Under the pieces are notes generated by a model, which was given only the letters and a program-made list of their open reading frames with translations, made no database searches and was not told where the DNA came from. Both the position numbers and the translations under genes were made by a program. From the NCBI RefSeq assembly GCF_058153355.1, contig NZ_CM177019.1: DNA of 64,000 nucleotides. The stretch is one strand, 5' to 3'. Within the stretch, counting starts at the first letter, position 1, and every line of letters begins with the position of its first letter. Of this stretch, positions 6,211-57,682 are shown piece after piece.

Positions 6211-7866
6211 ATGACGAATCTTCCCCACTGGTGGCAAAACGGCGTTATCTACCAGATTTATCCCAAGAGTTTTCAGGACACCACGGGTAGCGGCACCGGT
6301 GATTTACGTGGCGTTATCCAACGCCTGGACTATCTGCATAAACTGGGCGTCGATGCTATCTGGCTAACCCCCTTTTATGTCTCTCCCCAGGTCGATAACG
6401 GATACGACGTAGCGAACTATACGGCGATAGATCCCACTTACGGTACGCTGGACGATTTTGACGAAATGGTGACGCAGGCGAAATCACGCGGCATTCGTAT
6501 CATTCTCGATATGGTGTTTAACCATACCTCTACCCAACATGCCTGGTTTCGCGAGGCGCTGAGCAAAGAAAGCCCTTACCGCCAGTTTTATATCTGGCGC
6601 GATGGTGAACCAGAAACGCCACCGAATAACTGGCGTTCAAAATTTGGCGGTAGTGCGTGGCGCTGGCATGCAGAAAGCGAACAGTACTATTTGCATCTCT
6701 TTGCACCAGAACAGGCGGATCTCAACTGGGAGAATCCGGCGGTACGCGCAGAACTGAAAAAAGTCTGTGAGTTCTGGGCCGATCGCGGGGTCGACGGGTT
6801 ACGCCTGGATGTAGTGAATTTGATCTCTAAAGATCCGCGTTTTCCTAATGACCTGGATGGCGACGGGCGTCGCTTCTACACCGACGGGCCACGAGCACAC
6901 GAGTTTTTGCACGAGATGAACCGCGATGTGTTTACGCCTCGCGGTTTAATGACCGTGGGTGAAATGTCCTCCACCAGCCTTGAGCATTGCCAGCGATACG
7001 CGGCACTAACAGGCAGTGAATTGTCGATGACCTTTAATTTTCATCACCTGAAGGTCGATTATCCCGGTGGTGAAAAATGGACGCTGGCTAAACCTGACTT
7101 TGTGGCGTTGAAAGCATTGTTCCGCCACTGGCAACAAGGAATGCACAACGTGGCATGGAATGCCTTGTTCTGGTGTAACCACGATCAGCCGCGCATTGTT
7201 TCTCGTTTTGGTGATGAAGGGGACTACCGCGAACCTGCGGCAAAAATGCTGGCGATGGTGCTGCATGGCATGCAGGGAACGCCATATATCTATCAGGGCG
7301 AAGAGATTGGCATGACTAATCCACATTTCACGCGCATTACTGACTATCGCGACGTGGAGAGCCTCAATATGTTTGCCGAACTGCGCAACGATGGGCGTGA
7401 CGCCGAGGAGTTATTGGCAATCCTCGCCAGTAAATCCCGTGACAATAGTCGCACGCCAATGCAATGGAGCAACGGCGATAATGCCGGGTTTACAACGGGT
7501 GAACCGTGGATTGGCCTGGGCGATAACTATCAAGAAATCAACGTAGAAGCTGCGCTGGCCGATGAGTTCTCAGTGTTTTACACCTACCAAAAGTTAATCG
7601 CACTGCGTAAGCAAGAAGCCGTCCTGACATGGGGCAATTACCAGGATCTGCTGCCAGACAGCCCTGTATTGTGGTGCTATCGCCGTGAATGGAAGGGGCA
7701 AACCTTGCTGGTCATTGCCAACCTTAGCCGTGAGATCCAACCCTGGCAGCCAGGGCAAATGCGCGGAAACTGGCAGCTTGTGATGCATAACTACGAAGAA
7801 GCCTCAGCACAACCCTGTGCCATGACTTTACGGCCTTTTGAGGCCGTCTGGTGGTTACAGAAGTAA
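6211..7866 (+). CDS. treC: Trehalose-6-phosphate hydrolase TreC (GH13 alpha-glucosidase family)
   Basis: 551-aa product from ATG 6211 (MTNLPHWWQNGVIYQIYPKSF...); GH13 motifs DAIWLTP, GIRIILDMVFNHTS and GVDGLRLDVV. Confidence 0.95.
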   Translation: MTNLPHWWQNGVIYQIYPKSFQDTTGSGTGDLRGVIQRLDYLHKLGVDAIWLTPFYVSPQVDNGYDVANYTAIDPTYGTLDDFDEMVTQAKSRGIRIILDMVFNHTSTQHAWFREALSKESPYRQFYIWRDGEPETPPNNWRSKFGGSAWRWHAESEQYYLHLFAPEQADLNWENPAVRAELKKVCEFWADRGVDGLRLDVVNLISKDPRFPNDLDGDGRRFYTDGPRAHEFLHEMNRDVFTPRGLMTVGEMSSTSLEHCQRYAALTGSELSMTFNFHHLKVDYPGGEKWTLAKPDFVALKALFRHWQQGMHNVAWNALFWCNHDQPRIVSRFGDEGDYREPAAKMLAMVLHGMQGTPYIYQGEEIGMTNPHFTRITDYRDVESLNMFAELRNDGRDAEELLAILASKSRDNSRTPMQWSNGDNAGFTTGEPWIGLGDNYQEINVEAALADEFSVFYTYQKLIALRKQEAVLTWGNYQDLLPDSPVLWCYRREWKGQTLLVIANLSREIQPWQPGQMRGNWQLVMHNYEEASAQPCAMTLRPFEAVWWLQK

Positions 7867-7878
7867 GTATCCGCTAAG

Positions 7879-7908
7879 CCCCGGTAATACTGGTCATTCC
7901 GGGGTTTT
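7879..7908 (+). terminator. Rho-independent terminator downstream of treC
   Basis: ccccgg-N14-ccgggg stem followed by tttt. Confidence 0.6.
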
Positions 7909-8010
7909 GCCTTTCAGTATGTTGTTTTTGTTGATTTTATAATCAAAAAATTCATTAAAAAATTTACATAACGCTGTAGCGCCCGTCATCCGTACGCTCT
8001 GCTTTTTACT

Positions 8011-8055
8011 TTGAGCTACATCAAAAAAAGTTCAAACATCCTTGATGCAAAGCAC
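8011..8055 (+). promoter_or_regulatory. Two FNR-like sites upstream of nrdD, centred about 31 bp apart
   Basis: ttgagctacatcaa (8011-8024; TTGAG-N4-ATCAA) and ttgatgcaaagcac (8042-8055; half-site). A TAAAAT -10 hexamer at 8069-8074 would put them near -64.5 and -33.5, consistent with FNR-activated anaerobic nrdDG expression. Confidence 0.45.
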
Positions 8056-8098
8056 TATATATAGACTTTAAAATGCGTCCCGACCCAATATGTTGTAT
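8052..8098 (+). promoter_or_regulatory. Two NrdR boxes overlapping the nrdD core promoter
   Basis: gcactatatatagact (8052-8067) and acccaatatgttgtat (8083-8098), each about 13/16 to the NrdR consensus acaCwAtATaTwGtgt, with about 31 bp between centres. Confidence 0.45.
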
Positions 8099-8259
8099 TA
8101 ATCGACTATAATTGCTACTACAACACCACACGAAAAAGGTGCGGCGTTGTGGATAAGCGGATGGCGATTGCGGAAAGCGCCGGAAAACGAAACGAAAAAA
8201 CCGGAAAACACCTTTCCCAATTTCTGTGGATAACCTGTTCTTAAAAATATGGAGCGATC

Positions 8260-10398
8260 ATGACACCGCATGTGATGAAACGAGACGGCTGCAAAGTGCC
8301 GTTTAAATCAGAGCGCATCAAAGAAGCGATTCTGCGTGCAGCTAAAGCAGCGGAAGTCGATGATGCAGATTATTGCGCCACTGTTGCCGCGGTTGTCAGC
8401 GAGCAGATGCAGGGCCGCAGCCAGGTGGATATCAACGAGATCCAGACCGCCGTTGAAAACCAGCTTATGTCGGGTCCATACAAACAACTGGCTCGTGCTT
8501 ACATCGAGTACCGTCACGATCGCGACATTGAACGTGAAAAACGCGGTCGCCTGAATCAGGAGATCCGTGGTCTGGTCGAGCAGACCAACGCCTCGTTGCT
8601 CAACGAAAACGCCAACAAAGACAGCAAGGTGATTCCAACCCAGCGCGACCTGCTGGCCGGGATTGTGGCTAAACACTATGCACGTCAGCACCTGCTGCCG
8701 CGTGACGTGGTGCAGGCGCATGAGCGTGGCGATATTCACTATCACGATCTCGATTACTCGCCGTTCTTCCCGATGTTCAACTGCATGTTGATCGACCTGA
8801 AAGGTATGCTGACCCAAGGCTTTAAGATGGGTAACGCCGAGATTGAACCACCGAAGTCGATCTCTACGGCAACCGCGGTAACAGCGCAGATTATTGCTCA
8901 GGTCGCCAGTCATATTTATGGCGGCACCACCATTAACCGTATCGATGAAGTGCTGGCACCGTTTGTCACCGCCAGCTACAACAAACACCGCAAGACCGCA
9001 GAAGAGTGGAACATCCCGGACGCCGAAGGTTACGCTAACTCTCGTACCATCAAAGAGTGCTACGATGCCTTCCAGTCGCTGGAGTACGAAGTAAACACCC
9101 TGCACACCGCCAACGGTCAAACACCGTTTGTGACCTTTGGTTTTGGTCTGGGCACCAGCTGGGAGTCGCGCCTGATTCAGGAGTCTATCCTGCGTAACCG
9201 TATCGCGGGCCTCGGTAAAAACCGCAAAACTGCGGTGTTCCCGAAACTGGTGTTTGCGATTCGCGATGGCCTGAACCATAAAAAAGGCGATCCGAACTAC
9301 GACATCAAACAGCTGGCGCTGGAGTGCGCAAGCAAGCGCATGTATCCGGATATCCTGAACTACGATCAGGTAGTGAAAGTCACCGGTTCGTTTAAAACCC
9401 CGATGGGCTGCCGTAGCTTCCTCGGCGTGTGGGAAAATGAAAACGGCGAACAGATCCACGATGGTCGTAACAACCTCGGCGTGATCAGCCTGAACCTGCC
9501 GCGCATTGCTCTGGAAGCGAAAGGCGATGAAGCCACCTTCTGGAAGCTGCTGGATGAACGTCTGGTGCTGGCACGTAAGGCGCTGATGACCCGTATCGCT
9601 CGTCTCGAAGGCGTTAAAGCGCACGTGGCCCCGATCCTCTATATGGAAGGTGCTTGTGGCGTTCGTCTGAATGCTGACGACGACGTTTCTGAAATCTTCA
9701 AAAACGGTCGTGCGTCTATTTCGCTGGGTTACATCGGCATCCACGAAACCATTAACGCGCTGTTTGGCGGCGAGCATGTGTATGACAACGAGCAGCTGCG
9801 CGCGAAAGGTATCGCCATTGTTGAACGTCTGCGTCAGGCGGTGGATCAGTGGAAAGAAGAAACGGGTTACGGTTTTAGCCTTTACAGCACGCCAAGTGAA
9901 AACCTGTGCGACCGCTTCTGCCGTCTCGATACCGCGGAGTTTGGCGTGGTGCCGGGCGTGACTGATAAAGGTTACTACACCAACAGTTTCCACCTCGATG
10001 TCGAGAAGAAGGTGAACCCGTACGACAAGATCGACTTTGAAGCGCCTTACCCGCCGCTGGCGAACGGTGGCTTCATTTGCTACGGCGAATATCCAAACAT
10101 TCAGCACAACCTGAAGGCGCTGGAAGATGTCTGGGATTACAGCTATCAGCATGTACCGTATTACGGCACCAATACGCCGATTGATGAGTGTTACGAGTGT
10201 GGTTTTACCGGTGAGTTTGAGTGCACCAGTAAAGGCTTCACCTGCCCGAAATGCGGTAACCATGACGCCTCCCGTGTGTCGGTGACTCGCCGCGTGTGCG
10301 GATATTTAGGTAGCCCGGATGCGCGTCCGTTTAACGCTGGTAAGCAGGAAGAAGTTAAGCGCCGCGTTAAACATTTGGGAAATGGGCAGATCGGTTAA
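8260..10398 (+). CDS. nrdD: Anaerobic ribonucleoside-triphosphate reductase NrdD (class III RNR)
   Basis: 712-aa ORF; N-terminal ATP-cone, C-terminal glycyl-radical region and Cys-rich zinc ribbon (CYECGFTGEFECTSKGFTCPKCGN); RBS ggag upstream. Confidence 0.97.
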   Translation: MTPHVMKRDGCKVPFKSERIKEAILRAAKAAEVDDADYCATVAAVVSEQMQGRSQVDINEIQTAVENQLMSGPYKQLARAYIEYRHDRDIEREKRGRLNQEIRGLVEQTNASLLNENANKDSKVIPTQRDLLAGIVAKHYARQHLLPRDVVQAHERGDIHYHDLDYSPFFPMFNCMLIDLKGMLTQGFKMGNAEIEPPKSISTATAVTAQIIAQVASHIYGGTTINRIDEVLAPFVTASYNKHRKTAEEWNIPDAEGYANSRTIKECYDAFQSLEYEVNTLHTANGQTPFVTFGFGLGTSWESRLIQESILRNRIAGLGKNRKTAVFPKLVFAIRDGLNHKKGDPNYDIKQLALECASKRMYPDILNYDQVVKVTGSFKTPMGCRSFLGVWENENGEQIHDGRNNLGVISLNLPRIALEAKGDEATFWKLLDERLVLARKALMTRIARLEGVKAHVAPILYMEGACGVRLNADDDVSEIFKNGRASISLGYIGIHETINALFGGEHVYDNEQLRAKGIAIVERLRQAVDQWKEETGYGFSLYSTPSENLCDRFCRLDTAEFGVVPGVTDKGYYTNSFHLDVEKKVNPYDKIDFEAPYPPLANGGFICYGEYPNIQHNLKALEDVWDYSYQHVPYYGTNTPIDECYECGFTGEFECTSKGFTCPKCGNHDASRVSVTRRVCGYLGSPDARPFNAGKQEEVKRRVKHLGNGQIG

Positions 10399-21058: not shown

Positions 21059-21092
21059 CGGCGTACAAGTCGGCATCAGGTATTGATGTCCC

Positions 21093-22049
21093 TCAATACC
21101 CCATATTTTTCTTCTTCTCTAACTCTTCTTTTGCGGTATCAGGCAGGTAAAGGGTGGACTTGGTCAGCGTCAGCTTTTCAGGCATCGTGCCGTCTTTTTT
21201 GTATTTCTCCAGCGCGTCAAAAGCAGGGCCTGCCATATTCGGCGTCAGTTCAACGCTGGCGTTCGCTTCGCCATCAATCATCGCTTTGTAGATGTCCGGC
21301 ACGCCGTCGATAGAGCCTGTCAGGATATCTTTGCCCGGTTTCAGGCCCGCTTCTTTAATTGCCTGAATTGCACCAATCACCATGTCATCGTTATGGGCGT
21401 AAACCATGCAGATGTTTTTGCCGTTGTTTTCCGCTTTGATAAAGCTCTCCATCACTTCTTTGCCTTTGCTGCGGGTGAAGTCACCTGACTGCGAGCGGAT
21501 AATTTTGATATTTGGCGCATTCTTAATGGCTTCGGCAAAGCCTTTCTTACGGTCAATGGCGACGCTGGCCCCAACGGTGCCCTGCAGCTCCACCACGTTA
21601 CACGGTTTGCCATTCACTTCTTTTACCAGCCAGTCACCGATCAATTTGCCTTCGAGGATGTTGTCGGCAGTGACGGTGGTCATATAGAGAGATTTGTCTT
21701 TCACATCGATGGAACGGTCAAGCAAGAAGACCGGGATTTCGGCATCTTTCGCCTCTTTTAATATCGGCTCCCAACCGGTCGCTACCACCGGAGCGATAAA
21801 GATCGCATCCACCCCTTGCGCGACGAAGGAACGTACCGCTTTAATCTGGTTTTCCTGCTTTTGCTGACCATCGGCAATTTTCAACGTAATTCCGCGCTTT
21901 TCGGCTTCACTTTTCGCCACATTGGTTTCTGCGGCGCGCCAGCCGGATTCCGATCCGACCTGCGAAAATCCTACGGTTAATGGAGCAGCCAACGCCATAG
22001 ACGACATGGCTGCCGAGACTGCAGAGACTACAAGTAAGCGTTTCCACAT
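21093..22049 (-). CDS. ytfQ: Periplasmic galactofuranose-binding protein YtfQ
   Basis: 318-aa product with signal peptide (MWKRLLVVSAVSAAMSSMALA) and sugar-binding periplasmic protein fold. Confidence 0.93.
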   Translation of the reverse strand: MWKRLLVVSAVSAAMSSMALAAPLTVGFSQVGSESGWRAAETNVAKSEAEKRGITLKIADGQQKQENQIKAVRSFVAQGVDAIFIAPVVATGWEPILKEAKDAEIPVFLLDRSIDVKDKSLYMTTVTADNILEGKLIGDWLVKEVNGKPCNVVELQGTVGASVAIDRKKGFAEAIKNAPNIKIIRSQSGDFTRSKGKEVMESFIKAENNGKNICMVYAHNDDMVIGAIQAIKEAGLKPGKDILTGSIDGVPDIYKAMIDGEANASVELTPNMAGPAFDALEKYKKDGTMPEKLTLTKSTLYLPDTAKEELEKKKNMGY

Positions 22050-41763: not shown

Positions 41764-42921
41764 TTATTTAAATAAGGGTTTAAGACCGCTCGGGGGTTGC
41801 TTCACCGATGACCAACCTCCCTTACCTAAGTTATAACGCAGCCATTCACCTTGTTGGGCGTGCTCTTTCCCAATTCCAGTCGCTTGTTGAGTGTAAAGCT
41901 GCCCGTCTGTTGATATAAACGTGTTAGTTAATCCCCAACTACCACCTGCTTCAAGTGAGTCGGTGAGATCCTCTGGCTTGAGATTAATCAACTCCCCTTC
42001 GCCCAGGGCGTTGGTTGTTACTTTATAAATTTGGTTCTTATATAAACCGGTATTCCGAACAAACAGATAAAAATATTCCGGATCAACTCCCGCCAGCGTT
42101 TCATAAACACAATCACTACCCGCTGGCGTTGCTTCTTGTTTGAGCCAGGACACAGTCTTCAAACCAATATTAAATGACGCACAACTGTGACTAATATCCT
42201 CCAACTTATAGTCATGCTCACCGCTTTTATCGCGATAAACCAACCGTTCGCCAGGCATCCAACGTTTAATCTGAAAAGTTTTGCGATCGGCGGGCAGTGG
42301 CTTGCCATTAACGATCACCTGCGAATTTGTCAGCACAACAAATTGCAGGGCGGAATCATGCCGCACGATTTGAAATCCATCGGCATGACCCAACCAGCGC
42401 CCTTTATGCCAGAGGCCATTTTTATCACGCAGTAAATTCCAGATGTCCGTCTCTTCCAGCGTTGACATATCCACCTGCTTATCACCGCTATTATCATCGG
42501 TACGCTGGCCGTCAAAATAGATACTGCGTTTATCGGCAGCGAAAGCGCCGAATGCCTGAAAACTGGCAGCGTCGACTTTAGGTTTACCGGGGGGATTTTT
42601 CAGGACTTTGCCTGCCCAAATAACAAAGCGTCCATCGGTGAGCCAGGAATGCTGGCAATCCCCCTTATCATCGCAATCGAACTTATCGGGATTAAAATCG
42701 GACAGTAACCGGCAATCTTGCTTATTAGCTAAATTGGCAATGCGCCAGAGGCGGGAAAAATTAACGTCTGGTAATTCGGAGAGGATCTCATCTTCTTTTC
42801 CCTTCTGTTCGGCAACGTAAACCGTGCCTTTATCATGCTGGCGGTAATAAAAATCCGCGCCCCAGGAAGGTAAAATGGAGAGAGGTAATGCGGCGATTAA
42901 TAACCAACTGCGCTTAACCAT
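41764..42921 (-). CDS. Secreted repeat protein, paralogue 2 (DKNYY-like repeats; function unknown)
   Basis: 385-aa product from ATG 42921 with signal peptide MVKRSWLLIAALPLSILPSWGA; shares long identical or similar blocks with paralogue 1 (WLTDGRxxxWAGKxxxNPPGxPKVDAAxFxAxGxFAADKxSxYFDGxRTDDNxGxKQVDM). The ORF-track N-terminal extension (to 43080) overlapping cycA is rejected. Confidence 0.7.
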   Translation of the reverse strand: MVKRSWLLIAALPLSILPSWGADFYYRQHDKGTVYVAEQKGKEDEILSELPDVNFSRLWRIANLANKQDCRLLSDFNPDKFDCDDKGDCQHSWLTDGRFVIWAGKVLKNPPGKPKVDAASFQAFGAFAADKRSIYFDGQRTDDNSGDKQVDMSTLEETDIWNLLRDKNGLWHKGRWLGHADGFQIVRHDSALQFVVLTNSQVIVNGKPLPADRKTFQIKRWMPGERLVYRDKSGEHDYKLEDISHSCASFNIGLKTVSWLKQEATPAGSDCVYETLAGVDPEYFYLFVRNTGLYKNQIYKVTTNALGEGELINLKPEDLTDSLEAGGSWGLTNTFISTDGQLYTQQATGIGKEHAQQGEWLRYNLGKGGWSSVKQPPSGLKPLFK

Positions 42922-57097: not shown

Positions 57098-57406
57098 TTA
57101 TTCAGCCTCCTGTCTGGGTCAGCCGAATCCCGGGGAGGCAAGGAACGTGTTAAAGGTCGGCTGAAAAATGACGCGTTATAGTACTGACATACCCCGCTAA
57201 ACTCAAGGCCAGCCGACAAATAAATCTCATCTTTCACCAAATCGTACTAACACGCTGATTTGAAGTTCATCACACCTCATCATGGTGTTTTTTTGAACAA
57301 CTGCATCAGAAATGGTCACCATCCACTTCTTTATCATTGATTAAAATTAAATCAGAAGATCACCACAAGAGGAGAGCACACAAAGTCAGCCGTCGAGGAG
57401 GTATCT

Positions 57407-57682
57407 ATGTTCAGCCGTGTTTTAGCCCTTCTGGCTGTGCTTTTGCTAAGTGCAAATACATGGGCAGCCATTGAAATTAATAACCACCAGGCCAGAAATA
57501 TGGACGATGTGCAAAGCTTAGGCGTGATTTATATCAATCATAATTTCGCCACTGAAAGTGAAGCACGTCAGGCATTAAATGAAGAGACAGATGCGCAGGG
57601 CGCAACGTACTACCATGTGATTCTGATGCGGGAACCGGGGAGTAACGGCAATATGCACGCCAGCGCGGATATTTATCGCTAG
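57407..57682 (+). CDS. yjfY: Small periplasmic protein YjfY (YdgH/BhsA/McbA-like, DUF1471)
   Basis: 91-aa product with signal peptide MFSRVLALLAVLLLSANTWA; GGAGG RBS. Confidence 0.9.
   Translation: MFSRVLALLAVLLLSANTWAAIEINNHQARNMDDVQSLGVIYINHNFATESEARQALNEETDAQGATYYHVILMREPGSNGNMHASADIYR

Follow-up and report, generated by a model that had tools for sequence, protein, structure and literature searches.

At the nir promoter of Escherichia coli, Fis and IHF modulate activation by FNR (Browning, Cole and Busby 2000, 2004). Another FNR-dependent promoter, PnrdDG, controls the nrdDG operon, which supplies dNTPs for anaerobic growth; tandem FNR sites are studied on this promoter as a model, and metabolic engineers use it as an oxygen-responsive part. 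Two FNR sites of PnrdDG have been mapped, at −64.5 (FNR-2) and −33.5 (FNR-1) relative to the transcription start site (PMC10425943); in the account of Roca 2008 given by the same source, FNR-2 is both required and sufficient for expression, so any effect of the more distal element described here would be modulatory. H-NS has been named as an nrdDG regulator (PMC12176259), and Fis and DnaA regulate nrdAB, with DnaA also binding at nrdD. The published dissection of PnrdDG that we found covers the region from approximately −90 to the leader (FNR sites, NrdR boxes, DnaA boxes and an 87-bp construct) and stops short of this element. A construct in which PnrdDG extended no more than 87 bp upstream of the start site was judged 'too weak' for use.

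The locus studied here lies in a 64,000-nucleotide stretch of DNA from an Escherichia coli lineage (contig NZ_CM177019.1; hereafter, the window), in which the treC stop is at 7866 and the nrdD ATG at 8260. FNR-2 (TTGAGCTACATCAA; 8011–8024), which is included in Table S6 of Myers 2013, and FNR-1 (TTGATGCAAAGCAC; 8042–8055) place the transcription start site at approximately 8082–8083, as inferred from their −64.5 and −33.5 positions. Two NrdR boxes with a 15-bp linker (8052–8098; approximately 8052–8067 and 8083–8098), the oligonucleotide and spacing of which are taken from PMC12176259, flank the inferred −10 element TAAAAT (8069–8074) and the start site. An intrinsic terminator of treC, read from the sequence on the plus strand at 7879–7908 (CCCCGG, a 14-nt loop, CCGGGG and TTTT), is located upstream of the conserved block described below and is not part of it; this terminator cannot be aligned between genera. 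No strand is assigned to the FNR sites, the NrdR boxes, or the palindrome, block and Fis core described below.

An earlier note on this DNA had pointed to a perfect palindrome in the treC–nrdD spacer. Sequence inspection and a pattern search confirm that 7931–7946 reads TTGATTTTATAATCAA, i.e. TTGATT-TTAT-AATCAA, with perfect 6-bp arms and a non-symmetric 4-bp spacer. Its restatement as TTGAT-N6-ATCAA is correct, and the 'about 80 bp' by which it was said to lie upstream of the FNR site at 8011–8024 is 79 bp, centre to centre; relative to the inferred nrdDG start the palindrome is at approximately −144/−145. The perfect form is allele-specific. The exact pattern TTGATT-N4-AATCAA is expected 0.02 times per window, in what is a post hoc test, the pattern having been picked once the sequence had been seen. 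When the 393-bp treC–nrdD spacer (60% A+T) was subjected to dinucleotide shuffling, 68% of the shuffles contained at least one perfect 6+6 palindrome with a spacer of 0–8 (mean 1.4); the whole window holds 207 such palindromes, compared with approximately 166 expected. Symmetry alone is not evidence of function, because so large a proportion of shuffled spacers holds such a palindrome; the case for something functional here rests on conservation, not on symmetry.

Conservation was analysed using nrdD upstream regions from 80 species and a 30-column alignment of 55 sequences (47 of them distinct). Immediately past the upstream gene, the DNA of different genera does not align; at approximately 7922 column conservation jumps from 0.0–0.4 to 0.6–0.8, and remains at this level within a block spanning 7922–7950 (inter-genus consensus CTGTTTTTGTTGAATAWTTAATCAG; window form T5-G-N13-C-A6), with the columns of the FNR and NrdR sites reaching at least 0.9. 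Variable stretches separate the block from the next conserved blocks. It is present in more than 10 enterobacterial genera, at −328 to −337 from the ATG; the carriers are Escherichia, Salmonella, Citrobacter, Enterobacter, Lelliottia, Trabulsiella, Pseudocitrobacter, Kosakonia and Phytobacter, with more divergent forms in Cedecea, Siccibacter and others. Five columns (T9, G11, G14, T17 and C25) are at least 90% invariant across the 55 sequences, of which G11 lies outside the dyad formed by the palindrome arms. The block is kept, within this same range from the ATG, where the upstream gene is not treC but a treR-like gene, a small membrane-protein gene or others, each with its own terminator 0–40 nt before the block, and since it persists when the upstream gene changes, it belongs to the nrdD side. 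The distance between the centres of the block and FNR-2 is 79–81 bp in 41 of 43 genomes; in the same spacing survey, the FNR-2 to FNR-1 distance is exactly 32 bp in all 43, and that from FNR-1 to the ATG is 206–217 bp. Centred approximately −145 from the start and 80 bp upstream of FNR-2, the block most likely forms the outer limit of the control region of nrdDG. The element is not described in the literature that we searched.

E. coli genomes carry two principal forms of the element. A 521-bp query spanning the treC/nrdD junction is matched in 5,425 of 5,426 complete E. coli genomes, with identities of 95–99% in most and of at least 99% in only 10. The 45-mer around the palindrome occurs exactly in 1,093 of the 5,426 genomes (approximately 20%), including that of Nissle 1917, and the K-12 version of the 45-mer in 4,293 (79%). 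The K-12 MG1655 counterpart, GTTGATTTTTCAACCAGC, has TTGATT-TTTC-AACCAG in place of the perfect palindrome; the window and K-12 thus differ at five positions within nine bases (7939, 7940, 7943, 7946 and 7947), the remainder of the spacer being nearly identical, and the natural E. coli alleles of the element are TATAATCAAA and TTCAACCAGC. Among the Escherichia genomes compared, the left arm is nearly invariant and the right arm differs in almost every lineage, being AATCAG in E. albertii, AACCAG in E. whittamii and one divergent 'E. coli', and GAACAG in another divergent 'E. coli'. These outgroups (E. albertii, E. whittamii and two further divergent Escherichia genomes) carry intermediate states. 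The outgroup intermediate of the TATAACCAGA type is three changes from K-12, and because the window allele is only two transitions from it, ordinary stepwise divergence is enough to account for the cluster, with no unusual mutational mechanism. An inversion, or a templated 'quasipalindrome correction', was considered for the five-SNP cluster and rejected, as visual comparison shows that reverse complementing the window segment does not give that of K-12. A repeated or mobile element was likewise rejected (the 45-mer is single-copy per genome), as was a small open reading frame across the block, since inspection found that the reading frames differ between the alleles. Underlying the palindrome is most likely a conserved AT-rich element of roughly dyad symmetry, of which it is the natural variant with the highest symmetry.

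The half-sites of the palindrome resemble those of FNR, and the earlier note had proposed that it could form a third site for an FNR/CRP-family regulator, to be checked by matrix scanning. We used a symmetrised matrix made from the 63 FNR 14-mers that coincide with ChIP-seq peaks in Table S6 of Myers et al. 2013, the weakest of which scores 11.9. This matrix scores FNR-2 at 18.0, the highest value in the 64-kb window, and FNR-1 at 10.7; in contrast to the two mapped sites, and to the training sites, no 14-mer register across 7915–7963 exceeds −1.1. When two neutral columns are inserted into the matrix, creating a hypothetical gap 2 bp longer, the palindrome rises to 19.4, the top score in the window, from which it follows that the half-sites are excellent and the spacing alone is wrong. 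This property is particular to the window allele: the highest canonical score over the block among the 55 orthologous sequences is 3.5, and the score with the longer gap has a median of 3.3 across the 55 genomes, the common Salmonella/Citrobacter/Enterobacter form reaching 3.8 and K-12 3.9. The window and all aligned genera alike have a TGA-N8-TCA core; a spacing of N6, as in FNR and CRP sites, is never seen.

When compared with the canonical FNR operator, TTGAT-N4-ATCAA (for example FNR-2), this allele has near-perfect TTGAT/ATCAA half-sites and similar flanks (a T-run on the 5′ side and an A-run on the 3′ side). However, its spacer is 2 bp too long, which would shift one half-site by approximately 7 Å and 70 degrees, and its half-sites, unlike the columns of FNR-2 and FNR-1, are unconserved in other genera and in most E. 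coli genomes. It was in K-12, which lacks the palindrome and yet shows normal FNR control, that the regulation of nrdDG by FNR was elucidated. The K-12 FNR ChIP-seq summit (4460925–36) lies on FNR-2 (4460919), in a strain without the palindrome allele and at a ChIP resolution of approximately 100 bp. The CRP motif TGTGA-N6-TCACA also differs from the element, which has TTGA/TCAA half-sites and N8 spacing. CRP needs GTGA, not TTGA, and −144 is far outside the known class I and class II positions of FNR. It is therefore extremely unlikely that FNR, CRP or another dimer of the CRP/FNR family uses the palindrome as a third site, acting with those at −64.5 and −33.5, and the proposal in this form is not borne out; wrongly spaced FNR-like half-sites of this type are tempting false positives, and should not be annotated as FNR sites.

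The conserved block does match the reported sequence determinants of a different dimeric protein, Fis. The only critical base contacts made by Fis are to a G at −7 and a C at +7 of its 15-bp core; the centre from −2 to +2 is A/T, an A at −4 and a T at +4 are excluded, as are a G at −8 and a C at +8 (T or A being preferred), and flanking A-tracts enhance bending (Hancock et al. 2016, PMC4784862). By these rules, a candidate Fis core, GTTGATTTTATAATC, is located at 7930–7944 with its centre at 7937. In this register column G11 (G7930) is at −7 and column C25 (C7944) at +7, all five central bases are A/T, T7929 at −8 ends a T-tract (7925–7929; −12 to −8), and A7945 at +8 begins an A-tract (7945–7950; +8 to +13), both tracts being phased with the centre, such that the window allele can be written TTTTT-G-TTGATTTTATAAT-C-AAAAAA. 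The G/C pair at −7/+7 is retained in 42 of the 47 distinct orthologous sequences, and 33 of the 47 comply with every Fis rule in this one register, including genera without the TTGA/TCAA dyad; the background rate is 36 of 63,983 window positions (0.056%), rising to 0.32% in sequence of at least 70% A+T. The upstream T-tract is conserved; Escherichia, Cedecea and Siccibacter have an A-rich downstream tract, and Salmonella and Citrobacter a T-rich one. The rules are loose, as they are also passed at 8059, 8099 and 8111 in the same spacer (the NrdR-box/promoter region), and since no more than three G/C columns of the block are well conserved, chance could produce a G-N13-C frame in roughly 1 of 5 to 10 cases.

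High-affinity Fis sites have a 15-bp G-N13-C core with an A/T centre (the reference site F1 being aaatttGTTTGAATTTTGAGCaaattt), and the window shares with them G at −7, C at +7, an all-A/T centre, T/A at −8/+8, a purine at +4, the lack of A at −4, and A-/T-tracts extending outward from −8/+8. It differs from them in its −4/−3 step, which is G-A rather than Y-R, and in two features that Fis does not explain: the additional, nearly invariant G7933 (column G14; −4), which is accounted for by the dyad, and the covariation of the arms. The Fis centre (7937) and the dyad centre (7938.5) are 1.5 bp apart.

IHF is an alternative candidate. A region of anaerobic IHF enrichment in K-12 ChIP-chip data, 4460993–4461454 (Myers Table S4), corresponds to window positions 7489–7950 (v2 coordinate = 4,468,943 minus window position, a conversion checked on FNR-2), so that on the nrdD side it stops where the block ends; the centre of the region is approximately 220 bp away, inside treC. 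When compared with IHF sites (WATCAR-N4-TTR, with an A/T-rich 5′ flank), the window allele, AATCAAAAAATTC, matches the core at 12 of 13 positions and its 5′ flank is A/T at 13 of 15. Unlike IHF sites, the K-12 allele, which is the one present in the ChIP experiment, matches at 10 of 13 positions with three mismatches, and the ATC of the core varies between genera. No perfect IHF core occurs within the ChIP-chip interval. For FNR-2, 80 bp from the block, Table S6 of Myers 2013 gives no overlap with regions enriched in Fis, H-NS or IHF, and we found no H-NS region at the corresponding coordinate prefixes in Table S3 of the same study.

Our leading reading, which we hold tentatively and at somewhat under an even chance, is that the block binds a DNA-bending nucleoid protein and that this protein modulates the FNR-dependent transcription of nrdDG, with Fis as the best sequence fit and IHF as the alternative. 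In this model, a dimeric nucleoid-associated protein would dock at the block, bend the upstream DNA and tune FNR-dependent transcription to the growth state of the cell. Of the possibilities raised in the earlier note, the FNR/CRP reading is rejected and 'another dimeric factor' is plausible, because a conserved, nrdD-linked element fits both a Fis dimer site and a register-specific dyad; that a protein binds, its identity and the direction of its effect on transcription are inferred.

The dyad itself is visible across the alignment. Complementarity of the six arm pairs is found in 70.9% of cells; sliding the register yields no more than 48.9%, and shuffling 64.8 ± 1.4%, with none of 500 shuffles reaching 70.9%; the covariation score is 0.264, compared with 0.179 in shuffles, and for both measures the shuffle control ignores phylogeny. 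Since that control does not correct for phylogeny, we consider the register-specific covariation to be moderate evidence for a dyad at the block. The signal comes from pairs 12–27, 13–26, 14–25 and 17–22; pair 13–26 is UA in 29 sequences and CG in 8, and the nearly invariant G7933 pairs with C7944. Symmetric arm variants comprise TTGA/TCAA (the window and Kosakonia), CTGA/TCAG (C. amalonaticus and C. werkmanii), TCGATT/AATCGA (Siccibacter) and ATGC/GCAT (K. cowanii), and the symmetry continues through the centre of the element, as it does in protein sites. These symmetric changes could point to an operator for a sequence-specific dimeric transcription factor reading YTGA(W)T-N4-A(W)TCAR, which would provide a further dedicated input to nrdDG. 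We regard such an operator as unlikely, since the conserved part consists of the outer three to four pairs and one inner pair only (15–24 and 16–23 fail in 23 and 33 of the 47 sequences, respectively), several genera retain the G-N13-C frame without the dyad, the commonest form, TTGA...TCAG, lacks symmetry, and each genome has a single copy of the element. The covarying YTGA-N8-TCAR dyad is weaker than the Fis-type features. To our knowledge, no E. coli factor has this motif. RutR (TTGACCA-N2-TGGTCAA) has the same outer spacing and different inner bases. A single ARG box of ArgR matches at 9 of 10 positions in the Salmonella form and is a lead, although the TT of ATTCA is unconserved and a second box is absent; the Fur box and its 7-1-7 motif are presumably off by one in spacing relative to the element; and we know of no consensus for ArcA, NarL/NarP, PhoP, PhoB, Lrp, MetR, DeoR, Cra, KdgR or NrdR that fits it. 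A bolder formulation, in which the block is the operator of a dimeric regulator reading YTGA-N8-TCAR or, more radically, of a CRP/FNR-family protein at +2 spacing, appears rather improbable. If it were true, the anaerobic ribonucleotide reductase operon would gain an input beyond FNR, NrdR and DnaA, and the two E. coli alleles (a perfect dyad in 20% and a degraded dyad in 79% of genomes) would be natural regulatory variants.

Readings that do not involve a dimeric regulator were also weighed. The block could act as the −35 element, or as UP-like DNA, of a weak secondary sigma-70 promoter or RNA polymerase docking site directed toward nrdD. In genomic SELEX, the RpoD holoenzyme binds the K-12 nrdD–treC spacer in vitro, and a 'constitutive' promoter, TTTTCA-16-AAAAAT, has been proposed for K-12 (PMC3946193); by alignment it maps to 7936–7963 on the plus strand, with its hexamers at 7936–7941 and 7958–7963. 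The sequence ending in AAT at 7963 and the adjoining TTTACA are conserved, and the window allele contains a perfect TATAAT (7938–7943). Nonetheless, each proposed hexamer matches at only four of six positions, the proposed −35 (TTTATA in the window) falls where the block is least conserved, SELEX is too coarse to distinguish this site from the known promoter, 120 bp away, and the TATAAT lacks a usable −35 and is missing in 79% of E. coli genomes. Our consensus promoter scan of 7700–8400 found no sigma-70-like site on either strand, and we consider a promoter role quite doubtful. Much the same doubt applies to the proposal that the element has no function, being a chance AT-rich palindrome whose conservation reflects slowly diverging DNA beside a constrained promoter. 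The frequency of such palindromes in shuffled spacers, the succession of right arms among Escherichia lineages (AATCAA, AACCAG, AATCAG, GAACAG), the lack of the perfect form in 79% of E. coli genomes and the sufficiency of FNR-2 alone for activation are each compatible with it. The abrupt rise in conservation at 7922, followed by variable stretches before the next conserved blocks, the survival of the block when the upstream gene is replaced, and the presence of specific columns that are at least 90% invariant argue against it.

A hairpin in RNA or single-stranded DNA, serving as a second terminator, a read-through insulator or a structure in a long nrdD leader, was assessed by folding five orthologues and scoring them against shuffles. 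The arms co-vary, and the common TTGA...TCAG would pair as U·G on the plus strand; folding energies are −5.0 kcal/mol for the window and −6.8 kcal/mol for K-12 (z = −1.8 and −2.3, respectively), a strong GC-rich hairpin occupies the aligned position in Buttiauxella, and in E. cloacae the stem of the upstream terminator abuts the T-run of the block. The most widespread (Salmonella-type) sequence, however, folds at −0.6 kcal/mol with z = +0.9, the stems comprise only four to six A-U-rich pairs, and no U-tract follows the element in E. coli. As the mapped nrdDG start is 145 bp downstream, the element lies outside the known transcript. A terminator scan found nothing at the block and Rfam gave no match above noise; with weak or no support from these analyses, an RNA hairpin or terminator was rejected as an explanation, and the hairpin reading in its wider form is very unlikely. 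Given the weak folding, the Rfam result and symmetry that extends through the would-be loop, we favour a role for the element as duplex DNA rather than RNA.

That a conserved element is present at −145, and keeps a fixed distance to FNR-2, implies that the constructs in use are shorter than the natural promoter. It also implies that signals of growth phase or nucleoid state may reach the supply of dNTPs under anaerobiosis, as happens through Fis for nrdAB.

The closest described parallel to the preferred reading, i.e. that a nucleoid protein acts at the block, is the E. coli nir promoter. The nir sites have been footprinted, and are repressive in a manner relieved by NarL or NarP; nrdDG differs from nir in that no NarL or NarP heptamers are evident and in the unusual positions, −64.5 and −33.5, of its tandem FNR sites. 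Nonetheless, both promoters are FNR-activated, and at nir the sites for nucleoid proteins, which lie well upstream of the FNR site, modulate activation rather than drive it. The Fis I site of nir is located at approximately −142, near the position of approximately −145 occupied by the nrdDG block.

At the palindrome in the treC-nrdD spacer, positions 7939-7947 exist in E. coli as two haplotypes, TATAATCAAA and TTCAACCAGC, which differ at five of the nine adjacent bases and are carried by 1,093 and 4,293 of the 5,426 complete genomes, respectively; the flanks of this dimorphic segment are nearly invariant. Both haplotypes are present within phylogroup B2 (Nissle 1917 versus ST131), which suggests that recombination lies behind their distribution. 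The palindrome allele of the window contains a perfect -10 hexamer, TATAAT (7938-7943, plus strand), with neither a recognisable -35 element nor a TG extension; the K-12 allele is without this hexamer. A 521-bp query matched only 10 of 5,425 E. coli genomes at 99% identity or higher, with the rest at 95-97%, and the window therefore either belongs to a minority lineage or is a recombinant segment.

The conserved AT-rich distal block (7922-7950), which contains the palindrome, lies within a region enriched for IHF under anaerobic conditions by ChIP-chip (Myers 2013, Table S4; K-12 U00096.2 4460993-4461454, equivalent to window 7489-7950). This region spans the 3′ end of treC, the treC terminator and the distal block, and its edge at 7950 coincides exactly with the end of the block. 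The treC end and terminator (7780-7930) are unusually divergent in the window.

Two further conserved blocks, AAAATTTACA (7958-7968) and CGCCCGTCATCCGTAC (7980-7995), each with column conservation of 0.6-0.9, are located between the distal block and FNR-2, the upstream of the two FNR sites; TTTACA within these blocks is a -35-like hexamer, with no -10 element at 16-18 bp downstream. In every one of the 43 genomes compared (loci L006-L072), FNR-2 and FNR-1 (8011-8055) lie exactly 32 bp apart, centre to centre; the length of the leader varies by 11 bp. Elsewhere in the window, strong matches to the FNR matrix occur at 57524-57537 (GTGATTTATATCAA, score 17.2), 41978-41991 (TTGAGATTAATCAA, 15.5), 57337-57350 (TTGATTAAAATTAA, 15.0) and 21083-21096 (TTGATGTCCCTCAA, 13.9).

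A perfect DnaA box, TGTGGATAA, which reads TTATCCACA on the opposite strand, is present twice in the nrdD leader, at 8235-8254 and at 8148-8156, and both copies are invariant in Escherichia, Salmonella and Citrobacter. The proximal box forms part of a double box, TTAAGAACAggTTATCCACA, which is already known, since it matches a peak in DnaA ChIP-seq data that appeared in 2024 (PMC11317965).

In Buttiauxella (L049, L053, L058 and L059), the position of the AT-rich distal block is aligned with a long, perfect, GC-rich hairpin, approximately 340-355 bp upstream of nrdD (for example GATCTCCCT-AATAATTG-AGGGAGATC). No T-run follows this hairpin, and its loop is similar to the centre of the Salmonella-type block.
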